DNA of 64,000 nt from a virus (IMGVR_UViG_3300041964_000148); one strand, 5' to 3'; shown: positions 10,289 to 42,061, counted from the first letter of the stretch. The notes: generated by a model not told the origin, from the sequence alone. Numbers and translations: made by a program.

Positions 10289-10498
10289 TCAAACATTAAT
10301 GACTTCGGCAAAAACTTGCGATCGCAGCCTCAATGGCAAACTTTCAACAAACGCCTCCAGAGAATCTGTCTTATCAGTTTTCCTCAGGCTAGCGATTAAT
10401 TGCTCGATTCGTTGTCCTCCTTCAATTTTGAGCTGCCCCTCCTGGACATATACAGCCCCAATCTGTTCGTCGAGCTTATGAATTATCGCTTTTCGCAT
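10289..10498 (-). CDS. Small protein coupled to the kinase gene; candidate immunity/partner protein
   Basis: 69 aa; ATG overlaps the kinase stop (TAATG). Confidence 0.65.
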   Translation of the reverse strand: MRKAIIHKLDEQIGAVYVQEGQLKIEGGQRIEQLIASLRKTDKTDSLEAFVESLPLRLRSQVFAEVINV

Positions 10499-11385
10499 TA
10501 CATCAATGTATTTATGGCTTTTCCAATATCAGGCGAAGATGCGATCGCTTTCAAGGTGTCAAGCCGTGATTCAACGACTTGGCTATACATCTTCACAAGA
10601 TCTGGGTCTTTTACAATTTTGGGAATAGCAGCGAGGATATCCTTCTCTGAAGCCACTACAGCTTGAATATCTTCTTTCTTTATCTTGGCACTGATTCCCC
10701 GAAAGGCGTCGGCAAGTTCGCCATCAAAGTCACTCATGTTGGAGAACGTAGCCTCGTGATCGGCAAGCTTTAGTCCCTGCTTGGTGATGTGGAAATTGCC
10801 CTCGTTGCGATCGCCATTGGCAATTACGTAGTCAAATAGCCCTAGCTTCGTTATCTCTTTCTCGTTAATTAGCTCTGTGAGGGGCGTGTCTACCTCAAAT
10901 AGATTTTCCCCTTCAACGAACGGACTTGCTGAATAGTCGCGCCTCTTGATTTCTACATACTTTGAGGGGATAACGTATTTTTCTATCCCCATCACTTTCG
11001 AGATTTCCGTAGCTAATTCCTCTTTAGCTGCCGCATCTTTAAACAAAGAGCTATCTCGCCGCTTTAAGAAGTATTTTTGATTGTCTATTTCTGTTGTAAA
11101 GTACCTACTTGACCCTGCTGCTGTTGTAATGGGGGTCAGTACTGCTTCTTCAAATTGATTAACGGTTGGAAATCCACCTGTTTTTAGGGTGCGAACTCTA
11201 GCACTTGGCGGACTTCCTGTTATACGTGCTACCCGCTTACTACTCTCGGAGGCAAATTGACCAGACTGATCCCGTAGTACAGACTTCTGCGCGGTTTTAT
11301 ACCAAAGCGCAGGGTAGCGAACTAATGCAGCCTGTAGTAGAGCAAGTTGACACTGAGCCTGCATTAGGTCATAGGGATTAATCAT
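10498..11385 (-). CDS. Leader-family protein with HipA/PI3-PI4-kinase-like domain
   Basis: YFLK, KEELA, LFDYVIANGDRNEGNF and LADHE kinase motifs; leader ending in RDQSGQFAS. Confidence 0.8.
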   Translation of the reverse strand: MINPYDLMQAQCQLALLQAALVRYPALWYKTAQKSVLRDQSGQFASESSKRVARITGSPPSARVRTLKTGGFPTVNQFEEAVLTPITTAAGSSRYFTTEIDNQKYFLKRRDSSLFKDAAAKEELATEISKVMGIEKYVIPSKYVEIKRRDYSASPFVEGENLFEVDTPLTELINEKEITKLGLFDYVIANGDRNEGNFHITKQGLKLADHEATFSNMSDFDGELADAFRGISAKIKKEDIQAVVASEKDILAAIPKIVKDPDLVKMYSQVVESRLDTLKAIASSPDIGKAINTLM

Positions 11386-11416
11386 GGCATTGCAGATGAG
11401 CTGTATGATTGAACGA

Positions 11417-11944
11417 TCAACTAAGTTCTCGCAAGATTTCTCTCCACATCATTTTATCCTGGGGTTCAAACAAGGTTTCTCCAAAGTCATCGAGCAGGGT
11501 ATTCAAGGGTTGATCGTCTCCGGTGGCATTTGCGATGGCTTTTTGACTAAATGCGATCGCCGCCATTATCGGAATTGGGCTTTCTTTCAACTGTGTACTT
11601 TGAGCCAAAGCGCGAACTTGGAGGTCGTAGTCGCCTGACTTTAGCGCCTCGTACAGTTTATCAGTGGTTTCTTGAAACACCGCTCTCCCCTCACTAAGTC
11701 GATTCTTGACTTGCTCCTTTGCGGAGGATTGCCCAGGCGATCGCAAGATTCGAGCTGCCTGCTCCTGGGCGTCACTATCTAACCCTCGGTTCTTATTAAT
11801 AATGTCGCGGCGGGCGGTTGCTCCTTTAAGTTTCTCTGCGGTTGTAGAAGTAAATTGCCCCAATTTGTCCCGCTGATATACCCGCTCTAGTTGAAGAAGT
11901 GTAGTGAGTAACTGGGATTTGAGGTGTGCGATTACTATTTGCAT
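11417..11944 (-). CDS. Leader-family protein with a short leader, helical
   Basis: Probable start MQIVIAH at 11944 (avoids overlap with the divergent gene); RDKLGQFTS motif. Confidence 0.6.
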   Translation of the reverse strand: MQIVIAHLKSQLLTTLLQLERVYQRDKLGQFTSTTAEKLKGATARRDIINKNRGLDSDAQEQAARILRSPGQSSAKEQVKNRLSEGRAVFQETTDKLYEALKSGDYDLQVRALAQSTQLKESPIPIMAAIAFSQKAIANATGDDQPLNTLLDDFGETLFEPQDKMMWREILRELS

Positions 11945-11990
11945 ATCTGTTACAATGTCCAACAGTGTATCCAACAATTTAGTCTTAGAA

Positions 11991-12311
11991 ATGAACGCAA
12001 GTAATAAAGTCAATGTTTCCCTCATTAAGGAGGGATACAATGACTTCTGGTTTGTCAATAACTGCTCCTTTTGCTCGAAAAGTGTTCATCTAAACGGTTC
12101 TTGCGAAATCCAAGCAGGATTAGAATCGGGCTATATTTCCCAGGATATTGCTAATCGATTGGGATTGGATGAATCAAGCGATCGCATACCTTCATGTCCT
12201 GAAAAAAGAGTCGTGTTTCAAGGAGAGCATGAACGAGAGCCTGGATTGACGGCAGAGAAAATAATGCAGAGGGCAGAGGAATATAAACGTCGTGAAGGTG
12301 AAATCATATGA
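11991..12311 (+). CDS. Hypothetical Cys-containing protein
   Basis: TGTTACAAT at 11948-11956; CxxC; first gene of an ATGA-coupled operon. Confidence 0.6.
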   Translation: MNASNKVNVSLIKEGYNDFWFVNNCSFCSKSVHLNGSCEIQAGLESGYISQDIANRLGLDESSDRIPSCPEKRVVFQGEHEREPGLTAEKIMQRAEEYKRREGEII

Positions 12312-12664
12312 AATTTTTTGTCTCGATTAAGCCAGAGCTACTGGACGGGAATTTTTCTGTGTTTCGCTCTATCTTCCCTGACAATAAAATCCCCGTTACA
12401 GCGCCTGTCCCAACTTTCGATATCCCGCCCATAGTCGCCATCGCAAATAGACTTTGCCCAGAAGATCATTTGGGATTTAAGCTAGACGCCTCTCGCCTGA
12501 CCCTAGAGCAATATTTGGCTATGTACAAAATATTTTTCAAAGACAGGGGTGAAGTAGAACTAGGCTCAGAGTTCGTTGATCAGTGCAACCCTTTGCGAAT
12601 TATACGTGTTAATTATCGACACGTAATTGCTGTTTTTACTGAAGAGGAGAGCGATCGCATATGA
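12308..12664 (+). CDS. Hypothetical protein
   Basis: ATGA overlaps on both sides. Confidence 0.65.
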   Translation: MKFFVSIKPELLDGNFSVFRSIFPDNKIPVTAPVPTFDIPPIVAIANRLCPEDHLGFKLDASRLTLEQYLAMYKIFFKDRGEVELGSEFVDQCNPLRIIRVNYRHVIAVFTEEESDRI

Positions 12665-13056
12665 CAGATATACCAGACCAACAACCCTTTATTGCCTCAT
12701 TAAAAGTTGATAATGAAATCGCTTTTGGGAGGTATTATTATCGCGGAACCAAAGCAGAGCCATCTTTTAAGTTTTCCAAAGTGTCCAAGGTTACGCCATC
12801 AGGTCAAATCAAGACAACCTGCGGCAACGTATTTAACCGCGATGGAACCATGAGAGGTTCTTCATCCAACGGCGAAATACTGGTAAATCCTGAACTCGCT
12901 AGGGATTTAATACTTAAGCACAAAGAAGAGCAGAAAGCCCAGACAGAATTAGTGAGAAAAGATCTTCACGAATGGGTCGATAAAGTTGATCGCCTCTCTC
13001 TTTTGGAGTATTACATTCGTTCTATCCAATCGGATCTGCGGAAAGATCGAGACTAA
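12661..13056 (+). CDS. Hypothetical phage protein
   Basis: 131 aa; KVTPSGQI..FNRDG beta-rich motif; GAGGAG ribosome-binding site. Confidence 0.7.
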   Translation: MTDIPDQQPFIASLKVDNEIAFGRYYYRGTKAEPSFKFSKVSKVTPSGQIKTTCGNVFNRDGTMRGSSSNGEILVNPELARDLILKHKEEQKAQTELVRKDLHEWVDKVDRLSLLEYYIRSIQSDLRKDRD

Positions 13057-13087
13057 TTAAAACAACCGATACACAAGAGGAAGCAAC

Positions 13088-13276
13088 GTGGAGAAAACTC
13101 TTAAAGTCAGATTTTGGATTGAATTTGGATCTGAATATGTTGAACAAATCCTTGATATTAAGGTGCCAGAAAACTACACCGAAGAAGACGTTAAGGCAGC
13201 ATACAAAGAGTGGTTTTGGGAGATTTTATCGGGGGCATGGGACGTAGTTAAAGAAGAAAGCCAAAAGCTAGGTTAA
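13088..13276 (+). CDS. Small acidic phage protein
   Basis: 62 aa; GAGG ribosome-binding site; AYKEW..W motif. Confidence 0.65.
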   Translation: MEKTLKVRFWIEFGSEYVEQILDIKVPENYTEEDVKAAYKEWFWEILSGAWDVVKEESQKLG

Positions 13277-13332
13277 GTCTGATCTGCCCACATTAGGCGA
13301 TCGCACACGTAATTTACAACAAAAGCAAAACC

Positions 13333-14361
13333 ATGAGCATGAAAAGCGCCCATTCCTGTGAGGAGATTAGGGCAGCACTAGAGGCGGAAGGATATAAGGT
13401 GACTCAGTATCCCTTTAGGGACTTTGCTTCTATCCCCGCTATTTGTTCTAATTCTCATTCTTGTTTAGTGAACTGGTATAGTTTCAAAAAAGGTTGTAGA
13501 TGTCAAGAATGCCGCAGAGAAAGGGTGCGACGACAGGAAGGAGTGCTACCAGGTAAGAAGATGATTCCGTTTGAGGTAGTAAAAGAAGAAATTGAGAGGA
13601 CAGATTACAGGCTAATTACTACGCTGTCCCAGTATAGAGGTGTAGGCAATTACATTGAAATAAAATGTCCGCAAAATCACTTCTATAAGACCAAGTTTGG
13701 AGAATTCCGAAAAGGCAAGCGTTGCAGAAAATGCCGAGTTCTAAATACTCGCGGAGAGAATCACCCTATGTGGAACAAGGATCTTTCTGATGAAGAACGC
13801 TTTCTTCGACGAGATAGTAGGCAGCATGAAGAGTGGCGAAACAAGGTCTTAGAACGAGATAGATGGGTTTGTATTTGCTGTCAAGGACGTACCTCAAAAG
13901 ATAATCCTCTTTGCGCTCATCACCTAGAAAACTACAAAGGCTTCCCGGAGTTGAGGTTTGAGGTTGAAAACGGAGTCACCTTATGCAAAGAATGCCATAA
14001 ACGCTTTCATGGAGTTTATGGTTTAAGAGGAACGAGGTTAACGCAGTTCATAGAATTCAGCCAAACAGAGGGTTTCGACTTTGACCCAGAAAATGCCCTA
14101 ACTTTCAAGGAATACGTTCCTACTTCCCAGCCAGCTCAAACGAAAAGAAGCAAGGTTCTTGAGATTGTCAAAAACAGTGATCGCCCACTTACGGTGAGGC
14201 AGGTAAATGCTGCACTGGGTTTAGATGACAAGGAGATGCTGTACACCAGGCAGATACTTACCGAAGCTTGCCAGTCTGGTTTATTAAATAGATGCCGCCT
14301 CCCTCTAGAAACGTGCAAAGATCGAAAATTTCACTTTTTTCTGAGGGATGTCACCTTATAA
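13333..14361 (+). CDS. HNH endonuclease with N-terminal Zn-ribbon repeats and C-terminal HTH
   Basis: WRNKVLERD..CICC..AHHL..NGVTLCKECHKRFH; C-x3-H..CxxC repeats. Confidence 0.9.
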   Translation: MSMKSAHSCEEIRAALEAEGYKVTQYPFRDFASIPAICSNSHSCLVNWYSFKKGCRCQECRRERVRRQEGVLPGKKMIPFEVVKEEIERTDYRLITTLSQYRGVGNYIEIKCPQNHFYKTKFGEFRKGKRCRKCRVLNTRGENHPMWNKDLSDEERFLRRDSRQHEEWRNKVLERDRWVCICCQGRTSKDNPLCAHHLENYKGFPELRFEVENGVTLCKECHKRFHGVYGLRGTRLTQFIEFSQTEGFDFDPENALTFKEYVPTSQPAQTKRSKVLEIVKNSDRPLTVRQVNAALGLDDKEMLYTRQILTEACQSGLLNRCRLPLETCKDRKFHFFLRDVTL

Positions 14362-14430
14362 TCAACTAAGGAAAAAATTTACTAAAGGTCCAAAGCCGCT
14401 CACATATTCTGTGAGCGGCTTTTTTGCGTT

Positions 14431-17400
14431 ATGGATGAACATTATGGACTCTATGCACAATTTTCTCTTCAGATCGACCCCCAAACCAAGACAAATATGG
14501 GGTGGGTCAAGTCGCAACTCGGCGGGATCGAGACTGCCGTAGAGTCGTTATCCAGTAGTCTAGAACGCAATAACATCGCATCCCAGTTTAAAGCGGATGC
14601 CACCCAGACGCAAAGCGCCGCCCGACGCATGACAGGCGCTGTTGATCAGATGGGTGACAAAATGAAGGCGGCAGCGAAACGGATTGACCCCTTGAAGAAG
14701 GAGTTCCGAGCATTACGAGCCGAGGTCAAATTAATAGATTTTGGGGACATTACCAATGATCGCCAATTTAAGAAGGCGAATAATGAAGCCCGGAAATATA
14801 TCACGACCCTCCAGCATTTAGAAACTCAGATTCGGGGGGATACGACGGCTGAACGCGAATTTACCGCCCAACTCAAGCAACAGCAACGGGTGATGGCGAC
14901 ACGCATGGAAATGCAGGAGCATCAACGAGTTGCCGCAAAAGCTGCTGCGCGTGTGGGAGAGTTTCAAGTTGTCCAACAGGCAGGGCAACTTCTGGTAAAC
15001 GACAAACTAGTCGGACAGGCAAAGGATGCGATCAATGTCTTTGCCACCTTTGACGACAAGATGGCTGGGGTCGCCGCTATTACGACAGCGACGGGAGATA
15101 GCCTAGATGCCCTGCGGGAAAAGGCTAAATACTTAGGTGCGACAACCCGTTTCACGGCATCAGAAGCCGCCGATGCGATGTCTTTCTTGGGGATGGCAGG
15201 CTTTAAAACAGAAGCTATCCTTTCTGGGACTCAATCCACCCTCGACTTAGCTTCCGCAGGACAACTAGGATTAGCGGAATCAGCCGATATCGCCTCTAAT
15301 GTCCTAAGTGGTATGCAACTCAAGGTTGAAGACTTGGGTCACGTCACAGACGTAATGGCAAGGACAGCAACTAGCGCCAATACCAACATTCAACAAATGG
15401 GCGTGGCGATGTCTTATGCCGCTCCCAACGCGGCTCTATTTGGGGCGACGCTCGAAGAGACATCGGCTTTGATCGGTGTGATGAGTAACGCTGGTGTACA
15501 AGCAGATAAGGCAGGTACAGCTACCCGTGGTGCCTTCTTGAAGTTAGCTTCTCCCGTAAAGGAAGGGAAAATTGCTCTAGCAGAAATGGGCATGACCCTG
15601 GTTGATTCCTCTGGGAACATGAGGAACGTTATTGAGATATTCAACGAACTCAACGACAAACTCAAAATTAGCCCTGACACCTTAAAGTCTATCCAAGACG
15701 CGGGCGAAGATATTGACTCATTGGGAGAAGTGTCTCAGTCCAAACAAATCCAAGCCTTAAAAGGCATCTTTGGAACAACTGGGATATCCGGTGCATCGGC
15801 GGCACTAGGTCAAATCAAAGAATTAAATCGACTGGCGATCGCAACTCGTGCCAGTTCCACCAACACTGAGCAACTTACTCAATACTTTACAGAACTTCGT
15901 GATATAAAAATGAAGCCGGGGCAGGATATTTTTGCTGCAATTATCGAGCAAACCCCCAACTATACAGAGGCTGTTCGCCAGATTGACGAGGCAAACCTCG
16001 CACTGATGCAGGTAAACCTCAAAACACTTAATAGCTTGGATAGTAGTCGTCTAACAGACTACTTCCAACAAGTTAAAGGGATTAGTACTGCGCCTGGGCA
16101 AAGTCTACTTGCTGCGGTTGTAGAAAATGCTCCTGATACTCAAAGCGCCCTCAACCAAGTCTCAATTGCAATGGAGCAATTGGGGATTCAGGTTAAAGGG
16201 CAAGTTGGATCAGCCCGGTTGATGGCTCAGGTAATGGAAAATAGTCTTCCAGGAAGCTTCCGCGCACTTGAGTCAGCACTAGAGGCAGTAAAGGTTAACT
16301 TTATTGAACCCTTGGTTCCATTAATCAGAGGGATAACAGACACAGCCACTAGGTTTGCTCTATTCCTCGCCAACCTTCCTGCCCCCATCCGTACAACCAT
16401 CAGTGTTGGGGCGGCGCTAACAGTGGGCATGGGAGCGTTGGCGATCGCAATTGGGGCAGCGGGCGTCACACTTTTTGGTTTTCAACAAGCTATGGCAGTA
16501 ACGAACCTGGCGTCTTCCTCACTCGCGGCAGGTTTGATACCCCTTACTGGTTTCTTTGATACAGCACAAAAAGCTATTATTGCAACAAATCCATTAGAAA
16601 CTTTCTTCAAGCGTAACACTCAACTTGCCTGGAGATTTTGAGAAAGCGGCAGCCGGCACATTTGACGAAACCATAGCAGGGATGAAGCTATTAGGACGGC
16701 AGGCAATCCAAACCGGAAAGCCTTCCTCGTCATGTCGAGATCCCTAATGCTCTCCCCGATTGGTTGGGTATTGGTGGATTCTTGCTCCTGAATACAGTGC
16801 TAGAGCAGGTTGTCCCAGGTTTCAACTTGCTGGGAACTGTCCTCGGTGCGATCGCTGCTCCTTTCGGTTTTATATACGGCTTACTTAAGGGCATCATCCA
16901 CTCTTTCCTTGATCTTCTAGGCTTAACTGGATCTGGGGCGATGGGTACGATAGCCCCTGTATTTGGCACCATTACTAATGCAATTGAACTTGCAGCTAAG
17001 TCATTTTCCCTGTTTGCCGAATCAGGGGAGCGGATTGGAGAGCGACTGGGAAAGGCAATTACACTCCCATTTGAATTAGCTGGGCAAGCTATTGGCTCCT
17101 CTTGGGATCGAACAATTAGCTTTATCCGAGGAATTCTACGTCCCTTTGCTGACTTTGTTCAGGGCATTGGGCAAATGTTAGTTGGGTTCCTCGCCGAAGC
17201 CTCACCAGGTCCCACTTTCTGGATACGAAAGAAGTGGGCGATGACAGTACACTTCTTGCAAGGACTATTTGAGCGCCTCAAGGTAGGTGCGATCGCCGTG
17301 GGACAGCAGTTATTAAATGCTTTTACTACTGTTCTCCCTCAACTCTCCAGTGCAATTTCCATTGCGACGGTATTTGCAGAACTATCAGGGATTATTAACC

Positions 17401-20400
17401 CTGTACAAGGGTTAGCGATCGCAATTGGGAACACAATTTTTGGTGGCATTGTGGAGTCGATGGGTAAGTCACTAGATGAAGTGATCCCCATCTTTATTCG
17501 CCGCTTCTCCCTTGTTGCCGCGTTTGGTGGGTTCCTTGCTCAACGATTGAACTTCCTCCAGCCCCTGCAAGCTCAAATTATTGCCGGACTTGCGATTATT
17601 ACAGGGCTTTCGACGTTTTACCTAAAAACGTTCAGTTTCGACATTGCAAGTATCTGGCATACTACTGTTCAAATTATCCAAGGGGACTTACAGGCATTGG
17701 CTGGGGTCGCTAAAAATGTTGGGCTTCTTTTAATTAGTTTTCTCGCCGAAGCCTCACCGGGACCTACCTATTGGATTCGCCGGAAGTGGGCGATGACGAT
17801 AGAATTCCTCTCAAGCTTGTTTAAAAAAATTCGCTCCGCCGCAGTTCTTGTCAACCAAGCTTTCTTAGGGATTGGCGATGTCTCATCAGATCAAGGAATT
17901 GTTGCCCGCCAACAAATCCTTGAAGGTGTCGTTCTTAGCCTAGTCTCAGGCGTCAAGCTATTAGGCTCAGTTGCCACTGGAGTAGATTGGGCAATTACTC
18001 AGATTAACCAGTCGGTGGCTTCAGCCATTGACAATCTTGATCTCTTGGGATTTACCCTCCTCACCCTTTCTTCCCTGCCAATGACCCTTATTGGGCAACT
18101 AGCTCAAGGATTTGAGGCGGTACTTCCCGAACTTGCCCTTTTTGTAGGAGTCGGACTCCCGCGAGCGATCGCCTACGCATTGCCAGGAGCAGTCGCGATT
18201 GCAATGAGTACAGGACTCATTCAAGGGCTAGAGAAGGGCTTTGCCACTTTTGTTGCTGGGATGACGGAACGCTCCAAAGTTGCGTCACAACAATTGTCTC
18301 AGATGTTCGATGCCAACTTGAAGCAGGCAATCAACCGAGGACTATCAGAAGGCGTGACAACGTTTGTCCGAAATCTTCCTAGTGTCTTTCCCGGCATGGA
18401 AGATTACCAGTTTACGTTTGATTTTGATCAAGCGTATGCCGATTATGAAAGTCAACGAGAAGCGCGAGTTCAGGCAATTACCTCTTATTTACAGGAAGTA
18501 GGAGTTGTAGCCAACCAGGTAGGGCAACAGCTTCAAGCAGCACTAGCTCCCTTGCTCTCATTTCGGATTGGGGACATATTCCCCGCTCTTAGCTTCCTTC
18601 CTCCCTTAATCCCCCTAGTTACCGCCATTGTCCCTGCTTTTCAATCTCTATCGCAGGTTGTCCAGTCCCCGGCTGTACAGGGAATTGTTAATTTCTTAAC
18701 CGGAACTGTCCTCCCAACGGCATTACAAACATTGCGTGCGATCGCTTCGACGGTTGGTTTGGTTTTTAATGCTTTTATTTCACTCCCCCTAACTGCTGCA
18801 CTGATCGTAATTACTCGTCCCATTGTTTCTGCCTACCGAGAACTCCTGGCATTTCTCCCGCAGATTCCTGGGATACTCGGACGAGCGATTGTTCAACTTG
18901 CCCGAACAGCCGCTACAGCCGTGGCTAATTTACTTGCGCGAATTCCCTATATTGGGGAGACCGTCTCTCGTGCATTCTTGGGAACCGTAGAATTCTTGAT
19001 TGCAGTCACTCCGGTATATTTCCGACTACTGAGAGGACTATTTGAACGCTATTTCTTGAAGACAATTCGCCCATTACTTACTAGGTTCCAGCAACTATTT
19101 GGTCAAGTTGCCCAAGGGATTGTTTACGCCTTAGAAAGGGGATTTAAACCATTAGGTACACTGCTATTCCGAGCGCTTAATCCAATGAGCGCTTTCAAGC
19201 TAATTGGGACATACATCCGTACCAAGGGCTTCGCCGGACTGTTTAAACCTGGGTTGTTCATGCTCAACCCATTTGACTTATTCTTTGGGGGAATTCCAGG
19301 GATCTCTTGGGCAGTTAGAACAGCCGCGACAGCGTTCTATCGCATACCCTTCCCCGCCGGAATAATCGATAAGAAATCGCGAGAATTATTTCAAATCTTT
19401 GCAGGCTCAGAAGCCTTCCTGGAAGCAGAGCTTAAATCCCGACGACTAGGGCGAACCATGCTCGTCTCGATAGAAGATATCTTGAAAACTCAGCCAGCGA
19501 TTGGTCGCTTCCTAATACAAATCCTCCGAGGGGTGTTAATGATCAACCCTCTCGTCCAAATCATTGGTCGTATTGCCCTAACTACAATGTTTTGGTACTC
19601 GGCATTGAAGCCGATTACACCGGAGATGTTTGAGGCGATCGCTGCGACAAAGATGCTGGGGCTTTCCCTTTCTCCAGTCGCAAGTATCCTCAAGGGAATG
19701 CGCTTCGTGTTTGTTGACATGAACGAAGCCTTTATGAGGTTTGCTCGTGGCATTATCCCTTTCATGCGCGGAGTACAGAACTTCTTTAATGTCTTAGGAA
19801 CAATTACAGGCGTAGTTGTCCACGAGACTGCCGGAATTACAAGTATCCTCTTAAACTTATTTAAAGCCACATTCGGAAACCTAGGCTTACTTGTCGCTAT
19901 TGGTTTTGCTGGCGCGATTGATGCAACGTTAATTGGATTCCGAGCGATCGCCCAACTAGCACGTCTTAAAACTGAGCAGTATGGGGATGCTTTAGTTGCC
20001 CTATTTCAGGGAAATATTGGTCCACTACTTGGACAGATTGCTAGCGACGTAATGGGTGTCGTTGGGTTTATATTCGAGCAAACTATTGTGCGGGTTACGA
20101 AGGTAGCACTTAGCCTTGCCTCTACTGTGGGCGGTGCGATTCGAGCGACATTCCAAGAAATTGTCCGATTTATCCGTGACCCGTGGAATGAAAGTATCCG
20201 CCTCCTTAACTTGCTTGATGCTGCGGTAGATCGCGTACTAGGGAATATTGCAAGGACGATTAACGTCTACATCCAGCAACTTCAGCTCGACAGGCTTGCC
20301 CGTTTCCTCTCTCATTACTGGGTACAGATTGCGGCGATCGCAGACGTTCTCCTCGCCGTATATGGGGTGCTTAATCCCATGCAGGCGGCAATCTCTGGAC

Positions 20401-32400: not shown

Positions 32401-35400
32401 CCATTAAAGAGCTTGCCGATAAGGTATGGCGATTTGGCAACGCCTTTACAGAGGTATTTGGAGCTGCCGTTGCTCCGGCAGCCAAGGAACTACTTCCGGT
32501 TCTTAAGAAGCTACTAGCTATTTATGGGCGAGTGCTTGCGTTATCTGCTGCCCTTCCCTTTGGAATGATCGCTGGTGGCTTGGCTGGAGTCGTGGTTTCC
32601 ATGAAGGCGCTACTGAATTTATTTGAGCCAATGAATCAACGCACGAAGGAACTCTTAACTTCCTTCAGTAGCGCACAAGATATGGGGAAGGCATTTGGGG
32701 AGATTGTCGGCAATTCCATTTCGGGAGTAATTAATACCTTAAAAATTCTCCTGGAAGTGGCGGCTACGGTGGGTGATACCTTGACGGCACCACTAAAGTT
32801 CATTGATGCCGCATGGGAGAAAACGGGAAATGCGATCGGGGGAGTTTTAGGGCGATTAAAGCGACAAGCAAAGGGCGCTGGGAAAGGATTTCAGGGGGAT
32901 CTCTCTGAGGCGTCTCCTGGTCCCACCTACTGGATACGCCAAAACTGGGCGAAGACAGGGGACTTTGTGAGCAATCAGATAAAAGAGATGGCATCGACAG
33001 CCAAGACCCAGGGGAATGGCATGAGGCAATCGCTAGAAAATGTCATGGGAGGGGGCGACGCATCTACAAATATATTTCGATTTGCCCAGCAAAATGGAAA
33101 CAAGGCACAGCTCGTATCTATTTATGAACAAATGGAGGCAATGAGGCGAGCCGGCGCACTTGAGCAGCAAATCCGAGAAAAGCACCAAGCTGGCTTATTG
33201 TCTGACGCTAGGGCTGAAAAGCAAATAATGAAACAGAGGCAGCTAGGGCAAAAAGCACACCTAGCAATGATTAACACTGTTAGGGAGATCCAGACTTCGG
33301 CTAGGGAGAGAGAAGCTTCGGCTGCCGGAGCAACTCAGGAGCGAAATCAAAAGTTAGCCAACAGCTCAAGGGGGCTTTTCCTCAGTATGGGTTCTGCCCT
33401 ATCTAACTTCGCTCCACAACTTGCAACACCTCTATTCATGCTCAACGACTTTGTAGATCTTTTCATAGATCTCAAAGATGTACTTCCCCAAATCCGAGCA
33501 TTGTTTGGAGCGACAGAAGCGGCAACAGCCGCTAATGCAGCGACAACGAGTGCTGCTAATGGAGTAATTGCAGCGTCAGAAGGAACCGTGACGGCGGCAG
33601 CCGCGAGTTCAGCAGCAGCCCAAGTCCAGGGCTCTGCGGCATCTAGTGGAGCAGCAATAGGGGAAGCTGCCGTTGTTGGGGGAGCTAATAGCTTTATGGC
33701 AACGACTTACGGACTCCTAGGGAGGGCAGCTCAATCGGCTTACGCCAACATGATTAAACCCCTGATTCCTCTACTTCCCTGGATATTAGGTGTGTCTGCT
33801 GCACTATTCATTCTCTATCAAGGTTTCAAAAATAATTTCTTAGGCATAGGGGAGGCGATCAAAGGAGTTGGCGGCTTTATTAAAGAGTTTTTCGATTTAC
33901 TGCTTGGTGGAGTATGGCAAACAATTGCCTCGATCTTTCTCAATATTGAGGTTCAAATCAGTGCTATCGGTCGCACACTTGGTCGGGTCGGTCATATTTT
34001 AATGGAACCGTTCCGCCCACTCTTGGCGGCATTTGGTGTTTCTGGACAACGCTCTCTGTTGGGGAATGCAATGGTCGTGACGGTCAATTTGATCCTCCTT
34101 CCTTTAAAACTAGTTGCAGGAGCAATTAATCTCATCATTAGCCTCCTCAGTGGCTTTATTCAAGGCGTAATTCTAGTTGGGGGAATCATCCTCAATTTCA
34201 TCCTGCTCCCTATTCGGTTGATCAACGCCGCGATTTACGGCGTCATGATGGGCTTCAATTCTGTGATGCTCGGTGTCAACCAAGCGGTCAACTTATTACT
34301 TCTTGCCCCTCTAAATATCGCCACGGCTGTTGCCTACAAGATTGCCAACGTAATCGCAAAAATAGGGCGAGTAATTACTGCCTTCATTCTTTCTCCCTTC
34401 TTTGCCGTCCAAAATGCCATCATGAGGGCGATCAGCCCTGTGGTGGATTTTGTCTTTAAAGCAATTGGATTGATCGCAGGGGCAGCAGCTCTAATTTTCA
34501 CCATCTTAAATCCAGGGATGGTAATTGGGACGTTCTTTGCCTTCGTCACTGGGGCAACATTAGCGGCAAAAGCAATTCGATTCACATTAGGGATTCCACT
34601 TAAAGCTATCGGTTTCCTGTGGCGAAACACGTTAGGAAAGATGGCTGCTGCGGCAGTGACAGATTCGACAGTGGTAGGTGGAGCCAATACGTTCATGGCG
34701 ACAACGTATGGGTTATTGGCAAACGCTGCACGATGGGCATATAAACAAATCTTGATGCCATTAATGCCTTTGCTCCCACTAATCCTAGCCGTCGTGGCAG
34801 TTCTCGGTCTTCTTTACTTGGGATTTAAGACCAATTTCTTGGGCATTGGTGATGTGATAAAGGGGTTTATAGGAGGGTTCTTACTGGTATTTGATGTTGT
34901 TTGGGGCGTAATTAAAGGAATAGGGGATGCGATCTCCCAGGTATTTGGTAGCCTGATAACTTCGGTTGGAGAAATCTTTGGGGCATTAAAAGAACTAGCC
35001 GGGGCTATTCTTGCTCCCTTCGACGCTTTATTCGGACTGTTTGGAGGAAATGGTGCCGGGGGTGGGGGATCACTTGGAGAGGCAATCAGTGCTACTGTCG
35101 GTTTTATTCTAATTCCCACTAAGTTTGTTGCCGATGCCCTTTCGTTAGTGATTCGGGGGATAACATCCCTGATTGTGGGAGTTATTAGGCTAGGAACAGC
35201 AATCATCAATAGCATTTTCCGACCCATCACCAGTACGTTAGGATTCCTTTCTCCTGTAATGGGAGTAATTCGGACAATTATTGGGGCGATCGGAGGGGTG
35301 GCATTAGGGATTGCGGCTCTAATCGGCTTGATTGGTTTTCTCGCTACTACCCTGATTCCGTTAATAATGACCGGAACCGCTATGCTATTTGGGATGATCG

Positions 35401-36362
35401 TATCGGGCATGACGTTCCTGATCTCTGCTGCCCTGCCTGCGTTAATCAGCGGCTTATTAACAGTTGCAACGGTTGTCATTCCCTTGCTGGTCAGCGCATT
35501 CTTGTTTGTCTCAACTGTAGCTATCCCAGGCATTATTAGTGGATTAACTGCGATCGCTACAACAGCTATCCCACTGGTAATGACTGGCTTGTCTGCTGCC
35601 ATTCCCTTTATCATCGCTGGGTTTGGCTTCATTGCGGCGACAGTTATTCCCGCCATAGTTGCTGGAGTAATGTTCATTGCAACCGTCGCCATTCCCGCTA
35701 TGATTGCAGGAATTGCCGGACTTGTAACTGCCGCCATTCCACTACTCATAACCTTTTCTCCAATAATCCTGATGGTTCTCGCAGTTGTCGCTGCGGTTGT
35801 CCTCGTTAAATTAGCTTTCGATGCTGTCGTTGGGGCAATACAGAAAGTCATTCAGGGAATAGCGAGTGCAATCAGCTCAGTTGGGCAATTTTTCCAAGCT
35901 CTGCCCTTGATCGGAGGATTATTTGGAGGACAAAAAAATAATGCGGGCGATGGTTCCAACATTCAGGAATTCGCCGGTGGAGGTTTAGTCCTAGGGCAAT
36001 CCGCTCAAGCTGTCCCGGTGATTGCTCACGCGGGGGAATTTGTCATGACCGAATCGGCAACCCAGGCTAACCTAGGAATACTGCAATATCTTAACGCCGG
36101 AGGGAAATTAGCATTACCTGCCCCTAACGTTGGGGTAATGCCACCCATGCCCTTAAGGTTGCCGACTCCAGCCGCAGCCCCAGCGCAGGGGGCAGGAAGT
36201 GGGGCTGTGGTGATCGAAAATGTCAACATCAACTTCGAGGTACAAATTAATGCCAACAATGGAGTCGAGGCAGGGGATGAATTCTTGAGATATATCGAAG
36301 ATCCAAGGTTTAAAAAAGCAGTAAGACAAGTGTTAAGAGAATCAGTTGAAAGGATGAAGTAA
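14431..36362 (+). CDS. Giant phage tail tape measure protein (about 7,300 aa), interrupted here by three small indels at about 16610-16763
   Basis: TP901-type core (LREKAKYLGATTRFTASEAADAM..AGTATR), long amphipathic repeats, C-terminal FAGGGLV..AHAGEFVM. The gap between the two track ORFs reads as continuous protein-like sequence after three frame changes. Confidence 0.88.
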
Positions 36363-36364
36363 TA

Positions 36365-37507
36365 ATGGACAACTATCGGTTAACTCAGGCTCGGATACAA
36401 TGCAATGCCATCCAAGTTCTATTGCTTGCAGAAACCAAGGAATATGATGCTGGTTGGCTACCCCAGGCTAAATCAGTACTAAGAGACGAAAGTGGAAGAT
36501 TCGCTAGTAAAGAGGGTAGCTTCAAAGAAAAAGCAGAAGCTCTCTACAAAGAAGATGTTAAGCGCCATAATCGCGAATTTTCCAAGAAAGAATTTGCTAA
36601 ATATCTAAACTCTGTTCCTGCACATTTAGAAGCAGCCAAAGATTATGTTTTTGGGACTAGTTACAAGCAGAAAGTTGACGATTTAAGCAAGAAGTTAGGA
36701 GAGCTTGGGGTCGAACTGAAGAAAATCGCAACAAAGAAGTACAAAGAATTTGAACCCAAGTTAAAGGAGATGAAAGGGGAAGAGTTTGAACAGGCTGTTC
36801 AGGATGAATTAATTAAACTCAAACTTATAAACGAACGAACGTTCAAGGAAGACTTAAGGGAAGCTAAAACTGCCGAAGACATCAAAAAAATAATAAACCA
36901 ACATCAGGCAGAAATCATGAATGCTGCCATTATTGTTGGACGGGCAGTCGCGCTATCCGCTGGCGGATTAGCCGGATGGACTTTAGGAATTGTAGCTGGA
37001 GAAGTCCTGGTATCTGCAATATTTGGAGGGACAATACCAGCCTTTGCTACCATGTTCAATCAGGCGTTAATTGTTTGGGGAATTGAGGAAACAGCCCAGC
37101 CTGTTGCTGCTTATTTAATTGACAAGAAAGTTACTGACAAAAAATTAAACAAAGAGTACAAAAAATGGGCAGAGTTTGGGGTTGATGTGCTTGCTATTGT
37201 GATGGGTCAAAACCTCGCACAGATCATAAAAGTAGCAGAAGAAAAAGCTACGTTCAAAAAGGGTATGCAAATAGCTCAAAAGGTTATGGAAGATAACGCC
37301 AAATTGATGGCAGAACACGAAAAAAGTATCCTAACGAAGGTAGGATTAGACAAACTGCCAAAAGACTTTGATACCTTAGAAAGTGCTTATAAATCAGCAA
37401 TGAAAAAGGCGGCGGAACAGGGCAATTCCTTAGAGAAAGAGCTGTCAGAAATTAATAAGATCAAGCAAGCATACAACGACATTCGTAGAAGGCTGTTGGA
37501 ACAGTAA
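36365..37507 (+). CDS. Leader-family protein with hydrophobic hairpin
   Basis: Leader KEYDAGWL..SVLRDESGRFASK; Lys/Glu-rich helices; hydrophobic segment at about aa 185-240. Confidence 0.75.
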   Translation: MDNYRLTQARIQCNAIQVLLLAETKEYDAGWLPQAKSVLRDESGRFASKEGSFKEKAEALYKEDVKRHNREFSKKEFAKYLNSVPAHLEAAKDYVFGTSYKQKVDDLSKKLGELGVELKKIATKKYKEFEPKLKEMKGEEFEQAVQDELIKLKLINERTFKEDLREAKTAEDIKKIINQHQAEIMNAAIIVGRAVALSAGGLAGWTLGIVAGEVLVSAIFGGTIPAFATMFNQALIVWGIEETAQPVAAYLIDKKVTDKKLNKEYKKWAEFGVDVLAIVMGQNLAQIIKVAEEKATFKKGMQIAQKVMEDNAKLMAEHEKSILTKVGLDKLPKDFDTLESAYKSAMKKAAEQGNSLEKELSEINKIKQAYNDIRRRLLEQ

Positions 37508-37508
37508 T

Positions 37509-38409
37509 ATGTCAAATCAATATGAATTAGCTCAAGCTCGAATTCAAACACTTCAGATTCTTGTGGTTGCCGAAGCCAAGGAATACGATGCTGGTTGGCT
37601 AGACGGAGCAAAAACAATCTACCGAGAGGGAGGGCGTTTTGCTTCCAAGGGTTCTGGGGAAACCCAGGACAACCCTATTATTAGCAAAATCTCTGAGTCA
37701 ATAAGGCAAAATGCCGAGAAACAATTTGCCTCTCTCACGCCAGAGAAGCAGAAAAAGGCAAAAGAGGAGCTTAAGACTATTAATGATGGTTTTAATGAAC
37801 TTGCCGATGGCATTGACAAGATGTCGCCAGAGGAGCAGGAGGAGTTACGGAAGTTCCTCGCTTCTCCGGATGTTAAACAGGTGCGAGAAGAAGTGGCGAA
37901 GTTGTTCGACTCAGTTGACAAAAAGGCGGGAAAAGCATTCCGGCAGGTAGACGCGAAGATTGATAAGGAACTCAAGGGACCTGGAACTCTTGGTAAGGCG
38001 ATGAAGCGTATTCAGGCGATCGCCAATGATGTTATGGAAGGGGTGAAGGAGAATCCAGAGATTGTCGTAGGCGCCGCTATCAGTGCAGCGTGTCTTGTCG
38101 CTGGGGGAGCGGGAGCTGTTGCCCTTTTTAGCTTGCCGAATCTATTTTCCGTGGGGGGCGTATGGGGTGGACTAATAGCAATAACTGAGGGAGCAACGGG
38201 AAGCGCGAATCGCACAAGCGTTTGCGGCTGGTGGCTTGTCTCAGCTTGGATTTTCTGCCTCCGCTTATCTTGTTTCTTCTGGGCTTAGTAATCTTGTTCT
38301 GGATGCGACGATGCTCCTTAATAAGGATATTCGCGAGGAAATAAATCAGATAAAGGTTGAAAATGAACGCATAGCGAAAGAAAGTTTAGCAAAGCAATTT
38401 TCATTTTAA
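37509..38409 (+). CDS. Leader-family protein with hydrophobic C-terminus; frameshift at about 38208
   Basis: Leader KEYDAGWL..REGGRFASK; the alternative frame continues IAQAFAAGGLSQLG..KQFSF to TAA at 38409. Confidence 0.7.
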
Positions 38410-38433
38410 ATCACGGAGAACCGTGACATAGAA

Positions 38434-39855
38434 ATGCTCAATCCATATGCGATCGCCGAAGCCCAATCTACATCCATTCTCTTAGAGTCTGCACTTAAGG
38501 AGTATGCAGCCGATTGGCTCAAGAACACTGAGAGCGTGATGCGGGATGAAACCGGGAAGTTTGCCAAGAAGGCGGCTTCCGTGGGTCAAAGTGCGTCCCA
38601 GGCTAAAGAATCTATTGAAGAGGCAGTTAAGAACCCCCAGGAAGCGAAGCGGAAGGTAAACAGTGAGTTACTTAAACTCACGGCAAGGGGTTTGGATAAA
38701 CTTGTTCAGAAGTACCCAGAATTTACTGACCAACTCCTAGACAAGATGCTTGGGCTTGACGCTCAAGAGGCACGGGACAGGTTGGCAGATGAGTACGGAC
38801 GCATTAACCCAGGATTGCCCAACGCCATCAGACCAGACCCATTGCCCGTACCCCTGAAGGAGACCCTAGCAGACATCCTCAAGAAGATAGCAGCAGACAA
38901 GGGAAACCCCAAGGAGTTGGCTAAAGACCTCCAAAAAGCATTTGAGCTATTGGGGGAAAACTACAACGATTTAATTGACGACCTCAACAATGTGGAGAGT
39001 GAGTCAGAGGCGGTTAAGCTCCTAGGGAAGATTGCGGCTACTTCTATTCCTATTACTGCCTATCTTGCTATCGCCCTTACTCCTGAAGTTGCAATCGGAC
39101 TTCTACTTGGGGATAGTTTATCAACCATCCTTGTATCGACAGTAGCTAGCGAGGCTGTTAGTTTTGCTGCCAACAAGGGAATGGACAAGATGGATGTGAA
39201 CAACCCTTGGGTGAGAATAGGGGTTGAATTGGCAATCGGGATTGGGGTTGGAGGGGCTGTTAGTACTGGGGCAAAACAGCTAGAAAATGCCAAAACAGCA
39301 GAAAAAATTGGCGCATTTGCGGACAAGAAGGTTAAGTTACTTCGTCGCAAAGCCGAAGCGACATTTAAAAAGGTCAAATCCGGCGGCAAATCTTCTATGG
39401 AGATTCCAGATTTCCCTCCTATTCTTAAGCAGAAACCAAAAGGAATTCCTGATGACATCGAGTTTGACCAAACACCTTATGGCACAGGCTTGAGATTTGA
39501 GATAGAGGGCAATAAAGTATTACTAGGTCTTGGTGATGATGGGGTAGTAGGCTTCAAGATCAATGACAAGTTTGACATGGATGAATCTCTCGCCGACAAC
39601 GTAAAAAGACGGGCGGCTGTTAAGTTAACTAAGTTATTTAAGTCATCTGTTGCAGAGATGGAAGAAGGGAAGATTCTGTGGTGCAATATCCATGACAAAG
39701 ATGGAGTAAAAGCAGCAGATCGTAGATTTAAAGCTTATAAGCTTATGGGTTTTGGAGACAAAGTTGAAAACTCTGTATACGGTATAATTAAGGAAGGTAA
39801 ACTTGTACCTTACAAACCTTCTGCGGAGGATTTAAACAAACTACATGGTGACTAA
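38434..39855 (+). CDS. Leader-family protein with conserved N-half, hydrophobic helices and a unique C-terminal domain
   Basis: RDETGKFAKK; first about 270 aa paralogous to 40073-42061. Confidence 0.78.
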   Translation: MLNPYAIAEAQSTSILLESALKEYAADWLKNTESVMRDETGKFAKKAASVGQSASQAKESIEEAVKNPQEAKRKVNSELLKLTARGLDKLVQKYPEFTDQLLDKMLGLDAQEARDRLADEYGRINPGLPNAIRPDPLPVPLKETLADILKKIAADKGNPKELAKDLQKAFELLGENYNDLIDDLNNVESESEAVKLLGKIAATSIPITAYLAIALTPEVAIGLLLGDSLSTILVSTVASEAVSFAANKGMDKMDVNNPWVRIGVELAIGIGVGGAVSTGAKQLENAKTAEKIGAFADKKVKLLRRKAEATFKKVKSGGKSSMEIPDFPPILKQKPKGIPDDIEFDQTPYGTGLRFEIEGNKVLLGLGDDGVVGFKINDKFDMDESLADNVKRRAAVKLTKLFKSSVAEMEEGKILWCNIHDKDGVKAADRRFKAYKLMGFGDKVENSVYGIIKEGKLVPYKPSAEDLNKLHGD

Positions 39856-40024
39856 AACAGATGCCTATTCTTTATCAGGAGAAGAGGAGGACTACTGGCT
39901 TGAAGCTGTAGTCAACAAGTCAGAAGAGGAAGTAGAATCATTAATCAACGCTCTCCCTCCTGACAAGCAGAAAGCGGTTAACGCACTAATAGCCGAAACA
40001 TTTTTTCCTAAAACAAAAGATTAA
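39845..40024 (+). CDS. 59-aa acidic protein overlapping the upstream stop; candidate immunity protein (not in the ORF track)
   Basis: MVTKTDAYSLSGEEEDYWLEAVVNKSEEEVESLINALPPDKQKAVNALIAETFFPKTKD. Confidence 0.65.
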   Translation: MVTKTDAYSLSGEEEDYWLEAVVNKSEEEVESLINALPPDKQKAVNALIAETFFPKTKD

Positions 40025-40072
40025 AATCTCCGCTTCAACAGCGATAATGCTAGTTGAAGCGGAGATTTTTTT

Positions 40073-42061
40073 ATGCTTAATTTTTATACATTTGCTCAAG
40101 CTCAATGTGTCTCAATACTTTTAGAGGCAGCACTTAAGGAATACACGGCGGATTGGCTCAAGAATGCCGAAAGTGTTGTGCGGGACGAAACGGGTCGATT
40201 TGCTAAGAAAGCAGCTTCCGTCGGTCAGAACGTCTCTCAGGTCAAGGAATCTATTGAAGAGGCGATCAAGAACCCCCAGGAAGCCAAACGGAAGATTAGT
40301 AGCAAATTGCTTAAACTTATGGCAAAGGGGTTGGATAAATTAGTCCAAAAATACCCAGAATTTACTGAAAAGCTCCTAGACAAAATGTTTGGCTTGGATG
40401 CTCAAAAAGCACGAGACAGGCTAGCAGATGAGTACGGACGGATTAACCCAGGACTTCCCAATGCCATCAGACCTGACCCCCTGCCCGAACCTCTAAAGGA
40501 GACTCTGGCAGACATTCTCAAGCAAATGAAGGCACACAAGGGAGATCCCAAAGCACTAGCCAAAGACCTTCAAAGGGCATTTGAGCTTGCTGGGGAAAAC
40601 TACAACGAATTAATAGATCAACTCAATAACAACCTGAGCAACAACGATCGCGTACAAGACTTCATTAAAACACTGGGAAAAATAGCCTCTGCATCTATTC
40701 CCCTTTCCACCTTCCTCGCATTCACACTAGGACCAGAAATCGCGCTCGGACTACTGATGGAAGAAGGATTGGCTACGATCATAACGAACACTGGTGTTGG
40801 CGTAACGTGGAATTTTGTTGCGGATAAAGCATTGGAAGCGGCAGATATCGAAGATCCGTGGGTGCAAGGGGGAGTTCATTTAGCTGTTTCTGTAGGTGCG
40901 ACCACAGGGATGATGGACTGGCGAGGATTCTATCGTGCAGGGGTTCCAAAGTCAGCCAAGTTAGCCAAGGAGGCGGCAAAACAGGTTGATGTTCCGTCCG
41001 ATCTGCTGGGGGCAGAAGCCGTTACCTTTGTTACTGGAGGTATTGGGGACGTAACAGGAGATACGGCAACTACGATTGCGTCCGGACTGGAACAACTAAA
41101 AAAAGATCCCAAGATACTTGGGTTTAAGTCCCAATACTTCGTTCCAAATACTAAGAGGGAGTTTGTAACTCAGAACCCTGGAGCAATCCCAAATCTAGCC
41201 ACATTTACTAAAACCCTTGTTCAGAAAGGACGTAATCCTGATGCTGTCTCACTTGCAGCTCAAATAGCGGCTTGGCGTCAGAAACATCCCCTCATTCCAA
41301 TCACTTCAACTGGATATTCGGGTGGAGGGCTAATTAATCGAGAATGTGACGCAATCTTAAAAGAGATGGGCATAAATGACGTTAAGTTCGTTAATGTAGG
41401 AACCCCGGATCTGGGAATGTTCCCAACTAACAAAGCAATTCATATTAGTAGTCCTAACGATGAACTCAATGTCTTTAGTCCTAAAAATGCTCAACTTGTT
41501 CCTTCTGTTAAGAGCCATAAAAGCTATTACGAAGACCCTGAATTCTTTTTGACCCTTGATCGAGCTTTACTAGATAAATCAAGCCATGACTTGCTTAAAC
41601 GAACAGAGGTATTATCTGGGTCAGAAGAGTACCACGCATTTAGGAAAGCAATAAAATCCGATCAAGTTAATTTTGATCGGATTCTTGCCAAAGGAGAAGA
41701 ATTGTCAGAGGATGTCTCTAATAAATTCATATCTACGATGGGGGAATTTATAGATAAATTCAACCTTCCACTTGCTCAATTAGAAAAAGATATTACAACC
41801 AGTACAACTTCTAAAATTAACAAGGATTACCTAAGCCGAGGAGTAGGCGATCGCTTCAATGATCTAGAAAATGCTGCATCTAGACTTGTGGATATCCTAG
41901 AAGCCAACCTTAGTCTTCAGCCTCAAGAAGCTGGGGTTGTTTCCTCTAAAGTGCAAGCAATTGTCAGCCAACTCAATGAAATCGCCCAAAATATCAAAAA
42001 GATTGATGGAAATCCCCAGATTATCGAACAAATTGAAGGAATATTAGAAGATATTGTTTAA
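40073..42061 (+). CDS. Leader-family protein with alpha/beta-hydrolase (lipase-like) domain
   Basis: RDETGRFAKK; GYSGGG nucleophile elbow, VNVGTP, SPND, KSH (putative Ser-Asp-His triad). Confidence 0.78.
   Translation: MLNFYTFAQAQCVSILLEAALKEYTADWLKNAESVVRDETGRFAKKAASVGQNVSQVKESIEEAIKNPQEAKRKISSKLLKLMAKGLDKLVQKYPEFTEKLLDKMFGLDAQKARDRLADEYGRINPGLPNAIRPDPLPEPLKETLADILKQMKAHKGDPKALAKDLQRAFELAGENYNELIDQLNNNLSNNDRVQDFIKTLGKIASASIPLSTFLAFTLGPEIALGLLMEEGLATIITNTGVGVTWNFVADKALEAADIEDPWVQGGVHLAVSVGATTGMMDWRGFYRAGVPKSAKLAKEAAKQVDVPSDLLGAEAVTFVTGGIGDVTGDTATTIASGLEQLKKDPKILGFKSQYFVPNTKREFVTQNPGAIPNLATFTKTLVQKGRNPDAVSLAAQIAAWRQKHPLIPITSTGYSGGGLINRECDAILKEMGINDVKFVNVGTPDLGMFPTNKAIHISSPNDELNVFSPKNAQLVPSVKSHKSYYEDPEFFLTLDRALLDKSSHDLLKRTEVLSGSEEYHAFRKAIKSDQVNFDRILAKGEELSEDVSNKFISTMGEFIDKFNLPLAQLEKDITTSTTSKINKDYLSRGVGDRFNDLENAASRLVDILEANLSLQPQEAGVVSSKVQAIVSQLNEIAQNIKKIDGNPQIIEQIEGILEDIV

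Follow-up and report, generated by a model that had tools for sequence, protein, structure and literature searches.

A shared N-terminal leader on variable proteins encoded beside the giant tape measure gene of an uncultured phage

We analysed a stretch of 64,000 nucleotides from the virus IMGVR_UViG_3300041964_000148, referred to here as the window, in which several genes around a giant tape measure gene encode proteins that begin alike and end differently. Five open reading frames (ORFs) open with one leader of about 50 residues. Four of them stand in tandem behind the tape measure gene, whose stop ends at 36362, 2 bp before the next ATG at 36365, and the following junction has a spacer of 1 bp. 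The fifth carries a kinase-like domain and lies upstream of the tape measure gene, on the opposite strand. The genes of the region are collected in Table 1. An initial annotation of the window had already placed a tandem array 2 bp behind the tape measure gene and assigned small overlapping partner ORFs to two of the leader genes. Both statements were correct, the partners encoding 59 aa (11-nt overlap) and 69 aa (1-nt overlap).

Table 1. Coordinates of leader genes, partner genes and other features of the window
Feature	Position	Strand	Remarks
RRXRR-type HNH gene	8673-9833	-	close to the kinase array
69-aa ORF, candidate partner/inhibitor of the leader-kinase	10289-10498	-	1-nt overlap with the stop of the kinase gene
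P0001: leader (residues 1-50) fused directly to HipA/PI3K-like kinase domain	10498-11385	-	leader HMM E 5e-20
175-aa ORF, RDKLGQF motif only	11417-11944	-	conserved in sister phage L027, where it leads the same array
HNH endonuclease gene	13333-14361		phrog_559/119; directly upstream of the tape measure gene
Tape measure, N-terminal part	14431-16641	+	PF10145 PhageMin_Tail E 9e-45; tblastn to annotated phage tape measure genes
Tape measure, remainder (6532 aa)	16764-36362	+	one ORF of 7312-7320 aa in relatives
P0003: leader, charged helical linker, hydrophobic segment (201-227), helical C-terminus	36365-37507	+	
P0004: leader, linker, Gly/Ala-rich hydrophobic hairpin	37509-38409	+	frameshifted; relatives 299 aa
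P0005: leader, module 2 (to about residue 275), GNAT-like C-terminal domain (about 345-470)	38434-39855	+	
59-aa acidic ORF, predicted inhibitor of the GNAT-like domain	39845-40024	+	overlaps the P0005 stop by 11 nt
P0006: leader, module 2, alpha/beta-hydrolase-like domain (GYSGG elbow), helical tail	40073-42061	+	
Two island genes (191 aa and 126 aa)	42139-43311	+	between leader genes in L075, E 1e-9 and 5e-30
Conserved 590-aa gene ending the variable island	43407-45179	+	77-82% identical in L011 and L075
DUF932 gene	47271-48275	-	
Tad6 (type I Thoeris inhibitor)	49555-49998	-	E 1e-42
IS605/OrfB-type transposase fragment (189 aa)	57746-58315		phrog_506 E 1e-36
Large terminase subunit	61185-63467		phrog_675 E 2.5e-14

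The leader and its family

The leader follows the pattern KEYxAxWL-x8-(V/I)xRDxxG(R/K/Q)FA and runs into a linker rich in Gly, Ser and Lys. A hidden Markov model (HMM) of the leader matched the five window ORFs with E values of the order of 1e-20 to 1e-24, in agreement with the initial annotation, which had assigned a common N-terminus to the same five. In an alignment of 21 sequences that takes in distant relatives, W28, R37, G41, F43 and A44 are invariant and Y24, A26 and L29 almost so; VRY replaces KEY in the kinase subfamily. An AlphaFold2 (AF2) model of P0006:1-295 predicts the leader core (residues 21 to 45) as short beta strands, with the confidence score pLDDT at about 75. A six-frame scan of the 64 kb found RDxxGxF in open frames only in the five leader ORFs and in the ORF on the minus strand at 11417-11944, previously listed as a sixth member with a shortened leader. 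Only RDKLGQF is kept in the latter and its HMM match is not significant (E 7.6, or 0.04 in a tiny database), and it does not count as a demonstrable member of the family.

The leader has no Pfam family, and a leader profile returned chance-level rows only from the PDB. The literature searched contained no paper on the motif, and the jumbo-phage and polyvalent-protein papers found there do not describe it; no earlier description of the leader came from these sources, in line with the initial annotation, which had listed it as part of a candidate new system.

A word-seeded search for the leader gave 22 clusters. The HMM search that had been proposed for the leader matched 152 protein clusters at E<=1e-3, 53 of them at E<=1e-10, among 1.84 billion representatives, and C-terminal domains and gene neighbours were catalogued for members of the family. 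Among the matches listed, about 145 of 150 clusters have a leader that starts at residue ~30 or before. The exceptions are P0166, P0167, P0107 and P0062, of which P0166 and P0167 were rejected as false positives among repeat proteins (RCC1, LVIVD). A strict DNA pattern in IUPAC code found 57 leader ORFs on 46 metagenome contigs, with the leader at the start of the open frame in all 57. The same pattern occurred in 2 of about 186,000 species genomes, both of them metagenome bins, one of which holds 8 leader copies on three contigs that also encode homologues of the window's terminase, lysin and tape measure. These counts underestimate the family, since the pattern demands KEY and the exact W-x8-R spacing. 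Isolated phages gave nothing comparable: the window terminase had no match in 50,697 phage records, and P0006:1-280 had a single match at chance level. Window proteins recur identically on contigs of up to 245 kb, which places the window in an uncultured giant phage.

P0062 departs from the usual design. This protein of 3149 aa (ENA ERZ28573517, a 34-kb contig) contains IVRDxxGRFATKG nine times, once every ~250-490 residues, with Gly/Ala-rich linkers in between and a repeat core of ASIDPxxIVRDxxGRFATKG. It matches a 'minor head protein' PHROG weakly (E 2e-5), and its neighbours are a 2122-aa ORF, a 735-aa ORF and a beta-helix protein. The nine copies indicate that the RDxxGRFA element is usable as a repeated internal docking or processing site.

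Payloads, second shared module and partner genes

Behind the leader the proteins diverge into unrelated domains. Pfam searches of 138 members (E<=1e-3; best 25 of 31 families) identified ADPrib_exo_Tox (4), EndoU_bacteria, Pkinase (2), HipA_2, DnaJ, GNAT, Lipase_3 (2), TPR (2) and apolipoprotein-like helices, while most members had no match. The C-termini represent no fewer than 10 Pfam families, beside many sequences without a family, and together with the 152 clusters they uphold the earlier picture of a modular leader with interchangeable payloads. Two of the families are recognised toxins (EndoU_bacteria, E 5e-18, and ADPrib_exo_Tox, E 1e-20), and hydrophobic segments are present in most members.

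The initial annotation had named a HipA/PI3K-like kinase, a GxSxG hydrolase, membrane hairpins and an unknown basic domain among the window payloads, and in outline the kinase and hydrolase calls hold. In P0001 the matches to HipA_2 (E 4.6e-4, 20 bits against a cut-off of 27) and PI3_PI4 (E 0.0056) are both sub-threshold, although relatives carry HipA_2. A GDRNxGN catalytic-loop motif is readable as GDRNEGN, and P0001 matches phrog_3162 with an E value of 8e-9. A long-form relative, P0010, has a DRHIGN loop and a precomputed match to PF20613. For P0006 the hydrolase assignment is supported by its GYSGG elbow, by the thioesterase-like PF00975 of its relative P0017 and by Lipase_3 in other members. 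Sequence searches of the PDB returned chance-level rows only for the P0001 kinase region and the P0006 hydrolase region. The homologue of P0003 in L011 bears a DnaJ domain. The ORF of P0004 stops at 38288 by a frameshift, and the ORF at 38236-38409 is its displaced C-terminus and not a partner gene, matching the C-terminus of the 299-aa relative P0018.

The basic domain is probably GNAT-like. The C-terminal domain of P0005 was modelled by AF2 with a pLDDT of 86, and the best 50 matches in VIA-align were all GNAT acetyltransferases (Z 6.3-7.5, root mean square deviation 2.6-3.9 A over ~100 residues), with the toxin TacT2 and the anti-CRISPR AcrVA5 among the structural neighbours. Pfam gave no match to this domain and the best Foldseek match was not significant (E 0.018). 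With Z values that do not reach 8 and a Foldseek result short of significance, we limit the assignment to a predicted GNAT-like fold. An atlas feature search returned unnamed clusters at 0.82-0.84, which serve as a lead only.

A second module, of ~210 residues, follows the leader in 79 of the ~165 proteins collected and consists of a helical bundle and a hydrophobic hairpin. P0005 and P0006 both contain it and have ~270 residues in common before they diverge completely (300 nt at the 5' ends of their genes are 75% identical). In the AF2 model of P0006:1-295 (mean pLDDT 71), residues 70-220 form a confident helical bundle (~90), whereas the model gives little definition to the hydrophobic hairpin (224-281). 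A possible likeness of module 2 to tape measure proteins lies in its hydrophobic hairpins and in a weak match of P0006 to the tape measure family phrog_167 (E 4.3e-4).

Small genes accompany several payloads. Acidic homologues of 58-63 aa trail the same GNAT-like domain in four loci (the window, L011, L017 and L075), and in L017 this domain stands on a leader protein of 1179 aa. In a model of the complex of the GNAT-like domain with the 59-aa partner, the interface score ipSAE was 0.70 against 0.01 for the best control. Of 80 solved complexes 58 come up to this mark, as do 2 out of 110 mismatched pairs. Three runs shared at least 95% of contacts with a partner pLDDT of at least 75, and the invariant residues of the GNAT-like domain lie under the predicted interface. 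The model supports an inhibitor-like pair with predicted binding. The 69-aa ORF beside the kinase gene is ~80% identical in the sister phage L027, where it holds the same position, whereas the long kinase form P0010 has no such ORF behind it. The pairs of EndoU with 87 aa, kinase with 69 aa and ADP-ribosyltransferase (ART) with 56 aa are identified by adjacency only. An enzyme with a co-encoded inhibitor would be suited to act in the next cell and not in the cell that produces it.

Genomic setting and interpretation

Six divergent lineages or more have their leader genes inside virion modules, in agreement with the link to phage structural loci that the initial annotation had implied. The leader gene directly follows the tape measure gene in the window, L011 and L075, and directly precedes a giant tape measure gene in L009, downstream of genes for the major head protein (phrog_212), a head-tail adaptor (phrog_442) and an endolysin. 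It is divergent from the tape measure gene in L026, L027, L063, L069 and the kinase locus of the window. Giant ORFs homologous to the tape measure adjoin leader genes in four lineages besides that of the window. A Tail_P2_I (P2 gpI-like) baseplate gene is the neighbour in L006 and L025, and in L007 the leader gene directly follows a homologue of the major head protein. Among neighbours that might encode a conserved docking partner, only the tape measure, the commonest (5 lineages), and the gpI-like gene (3 lineages) were found repeatedly. PHROG and Pfam gave no match for most neighbours, including the 590-aa gene and the genes of the L006 baseplate region.

The array behaves as a hypervariable island between conserved flanks, the tape measure gene on one side and the 590-aa gene on the other. 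The array encodes proteins of 380, 299, 473 (with the 59-aa partner) and 662 aa in the window, 286, 389 (DnaJ) and 469 aa (with a 58-aa partner) in L011, and 434 (with a 60-aa partner), 174, 118 and 557 aa (kinase) in L075. The kinase locus of the 242-kb sister phage L027 adds a leader-EndoU gene with an 87-aa ORF and a 374-aa member. Payloads had been expected to vary among relatives, and the contents of these loci do differ. The 126-aa protein of the island (42931-43311) is hydrophobic and Trp-rich and is 55% identical in L075. The 590-aa gene is also close to a leader-ART gene in L018; an atlas feature search with it gave values of only 0.79-0.84, to contractile injection system (CIS) tube and tube-initiator clusters, a weak lead that its product is possibly tube-initiator-like.

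Several known systems share features with the leader genes. Among the closest are Tme of Streptomyces davawensis (PMC11126660) and Sle1/Sle2 of S. lividans (PMC13277306), tape-measure-related effectors packed inside actinobacterial contractile injection particles, one relative of which is a toxin-antitoxin pair (PMC11126660, PMC13277306). Like the leader proteins they are modular, are encoded beside tape measure and baseplate genes and have predicted transmembrane helices, helical or disordered regions and an exchangeable C-terminal domain. They differ in belonging to headless bacterial machines and in using the DUF4157 'CIS effector core', whereas the carrier of the leader genes is a true phage (terminase, major head protein) in which an unrelated 50-residue leader is found on several tagged genes in arrays. 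DUF4157 (PF13699) had no match in the six window proteins (E<=0.1) and was absent from the best 25 of the 31 families of the 138 members.

The N-terminal signals of extracellular contractile injection systems (eCIS), poorly conserved, disordered and defined by charge, depend on a Pvc15-type AAA+ ATPase. The leader, in contrast, has five invariant residues and a predicted hairpin, and no AAA+ gene was seen in the 20-kb leader-gene neighbourhoods examined. What the two have in common is a tag of ~20-50 N-terminal residues on unrelated payloads encoded beside the machine, and the eCIS tag is sufficient for loading into the tube (PVC Pnf/Pdp1 and Afp18 NtSP; PMC9054023, PMC11495950, bioRxiv 10.1101/2023.11.13.566157). 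MuF proteins and other polymorphic toxins likewise combine a conserved N-terminal virion or trafficking domain with recombining C-termini (EndoU, ART) and small immunity-like genes that lie downstream. The MuF domain (PF04233), which exceeds 100 residues, belongs to head morphogenesis, and Jamet et al. are said to have described MuF polymorphic toxins of temperate phages in 2017. Leader genes differ in lying mainly with tail genes, several per genome, and in encoding the additional membrane-hairpin module. Phage_Mu_F (PF04233) was found neither in the window proteins (Pfam, PHROG) nor in the best 25 of the 31 member families. Because both defining domains were sought and not found, we place the leader family outside the DUF4157 and MuF families.

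In general design the family agrees with polymorphic toxin systems (Zhang et al. 2012, PMC3482391), with a conserved N-terminal region, recombining unrelated C-termini and recognised toxin families. T4 internal proteins and Alt offer another parallel, in which a short N-terminal tag sends unrelated proteins, an ADP-ribosyltransferase among them, into the particle for injection. The capsid-targeting sequence, ~10 residues long in T4, acts via the scaffolding core, and gp21 cuts it off behind Glu. It has no sequence likeness to the leader, in which KEY is kept except in the kinase subfamily. Markers of type VI secretion system (T6SS) effectors (prePAAR-TMD with Eag chaperones; MIX, FIX and WHIX) also combine an N-terminal marker on polymorphic effectors with small cognate partners. 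They serve another machine, and the leader genes have neither PAAR/VgrG context nor sequence relation to them. The N-proximal transmembrane segments of T6SS effectors are thought to aid toxin entry (PMC12135965). The tag, the hairpin module and the arrays in true phages appear undescribed in the sources searched, and the principle is known. Of the proposal of a candidate new system, the novelty of the tag and of its true-phage setting stands, but the logic of tag, toxin and inhibitor was already familiar from polymorphic effectors.

We lean, at slightly better than even confidence, towards reading the leader as the N-terminal address domain of an undescribed family of polymorphic phage effectors, a modular tag that would incorporate effectors into the virion for ejection. 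The fixed N-terminal tag, the unrelated C-termini, the turnover of cassettes and the small putative inhibitors give the family the signature of polymorphic effectors, and a virion-incorporation tag is the most economical reading because the genes reside in morphogenetic modules and are coupled to the tape measure gene. The proteins are built from an N-terminal helix, a small predicted beta-hairpin (KEYxAxWL and V-x-RDxxGRFA), a flexible linker, module 2 in about half of them and a variable end domain. In the route that we infer, they would be produced late, together with virion proteins, and the leader, by docking them onto a conserved component of the virion, would secure them a place in the particle, which might be the tail lumen or baseplate hub beside the giant tape measure, or else the head. 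At infection they may leave the particle with the tape measure and the DNA; the hydrophobic hairpin would then enter or cross the host membrane and the C-terminal domain would act on the new host. Harmful payloads (GNAT-like, EndoU) would be kept inactive by the small co-encoded protein, which would be left behind. A more specific version is possible but rather doubtful in our estimate: the leader would be a sequence-defined, transferable tag that fills the tail lumen or baseplate hub beside the 7300-residue tape measure with changeable enzymes, these would be ejected ahead of the DNA and carried across the host membrane by the shared hairpin module, and the inhibitors would be stripped off at loading.

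Several observations weigh against the packaging of these proteins, or against parts of the proposed route. Leader genes have the major head protein as well as the tape measure for neighbours, which does not separate head from tail, and P0062 with its nine RDxxGRFA copies weakly matches the minor head PHROG; for both reasons a head destination is possible too. Transcription of the kinase array diverges from that of the tail operon, so this array need not be co-expressed late. At a distance of up to 10 kb from the leader genes of L017 and L018, no structural gene was recognised. Among known packaging signals, Pfam families and solved structures the leader has no match, the model of module 2 has no Foldseek match at E<=0.001 in the PDB or BFVD, and the GNAT assignment stands on Z<8 and a Foldseek E>0.01. 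Hydrophobic hairpins, finally, equally suit residents of the membrane of the infected cell.

Several of these points lead to the main rival, which we judge unlikely, namely that the proteins are not packaged at all and are host-takeover or membrane-remodelling proteins used in the same infection. The leader would then be a shared domain for interaction, regulation or membrane delivery, binding for example a single host or phage factor, and the hairpin would anchor the proteins in the cell or thylakoid membrane. Hydrophobic segments in most members, payloads typical of intracellular takeover (kinase, DnaJ, GNAT, ART), the loci without nearby structural genes (L017, L018) and the divergent kinase array all agree with such a role. 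For an enzyme meant to act in the producing cell, however, there would be little sense in a same-operon inhibitor that, by prediction, shields the conserved face of the payload; the strict N-terminal position in ~150 clusters and the translational coupling to the tape measure gene are typical of trafficking tags, and the residence in structural modules recurs across at least six divergent lineages.

If the proteins are in the particle, they might instead be paralogous minor tail or baseplate proteins whose leader fixes them on the tail's outer side or tip, much like the conserved N-termini of tail fibres, leaving the variable parts to strike the envelope externally. The three leader genes of L006 fill the slot after the P2 gpI-like gene, the position of the fibre gene in P2, the leader gene of L025 abuts the same baseplate gene, and lipase or hydrolase payloads could attack an envelope. 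Kinase, DnaJ, GNAT-like, ART and EndoU domains, however, need cytoplasmic substrates, exposed hydrophobic hairpins are unlikely on a virion surface, and Pfam and PHROG detected no fibre-like repeats or beta-helix domains; we consider this arrangement improbable. It is more improbable still that RDxxGRFA is mainly a processing site, the leader being a propeptide cut by a phage protease as in T4 internal and phiKZ inner-body proteins, with the motif marking polyprotein junctions. Such junctions are suggested by the nine copies between Gly/Ala-rich linkers in P0062, the linker directly behind the leader is flexible, and KE/Y resembles the Glu-specific sites of T4-type prohead proteases. An element of ~25 residues with invariant W, R, G and F and a modelled beta-hairpin (pLDDT ~75) far exceeds known protease sites, though, and the kinase subfamily lacks the Glu (VRY for KEY). 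Near the arrays no gene was recognised as encoding a protease, and the C39-like genes of L009 resemble those of endolysins. Processing would in any case be compatible with incorporation into the virion and does not exclude it.

Few phage-delivered proteins are recognisable from sequence. If the leader is indeed a virion tag, its ~150 clusters would reveal host processes attacked at infection, the catalogue so far comprising phosphorylation, ADP-ribosylation, acetylation, RNA cleavage, chaperone hijacking and lipid hydrolysis. The tag would also tie tape measure biology to effector loading in contractile injection systems and might serve to put proteins into phage particles. In the more specific version given above it would be a phage counterpart of cargo loading in eCIS and T6SS, and its consensus could be used for finding phage effectors and for loading proteins of foreign origin. 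For most of the tagged domains no family is known, which makes the list a source of new enzyme/inhibitor pairs too.

Tape measure and other features of the window

The tape measure gene is broken in the window. Between 16600 and 16770, frame 1 has a stop at 16639, frame 2 is open to ~16745 and frame 0 runs from 16695, with two changes of reading frame between 16639 and 16764, which could reflect either a pair of assembly indels or a real disruption. The presence of both this break and the frameshift in P0004 suggests indel errors in the assembly. On tape measure homologues in related contigs (L008 19296-21002, L009 14111-20145 and L027 1-1682), precomputed Pfam marks were found for DnaJ (6023 aa; 7320 aa in L027, faint) and Phospholipase-like (more than 5473 aa). 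Because these types also occur behind the leader, effector-type domains are possibly embedded in the tape measure itself.

Indications of the host come from related material. McdB-like and ParA/McdA-like (carboxysome positioning) genes lie on a related phage contig (L008 55-1201), and one match fell in a bin labelled 'uncultured cyanobacterium'; the hints are limited to these two, and a cyanobacterial host for the window phage is plausible.

The window also contains a GH19 lysin-like gene. The two HNH genes of the structural region may be homing elements. Complete OrfB/TnpB genes, related in type to the transposase fragment of the window, adjoin leader genes in L017 and L027. Tad6 and the DUF932 gene, located downstream of the array at a distance of a few kb, belong to an anti-defence cluster, and BubE is encoded near them in relatives.

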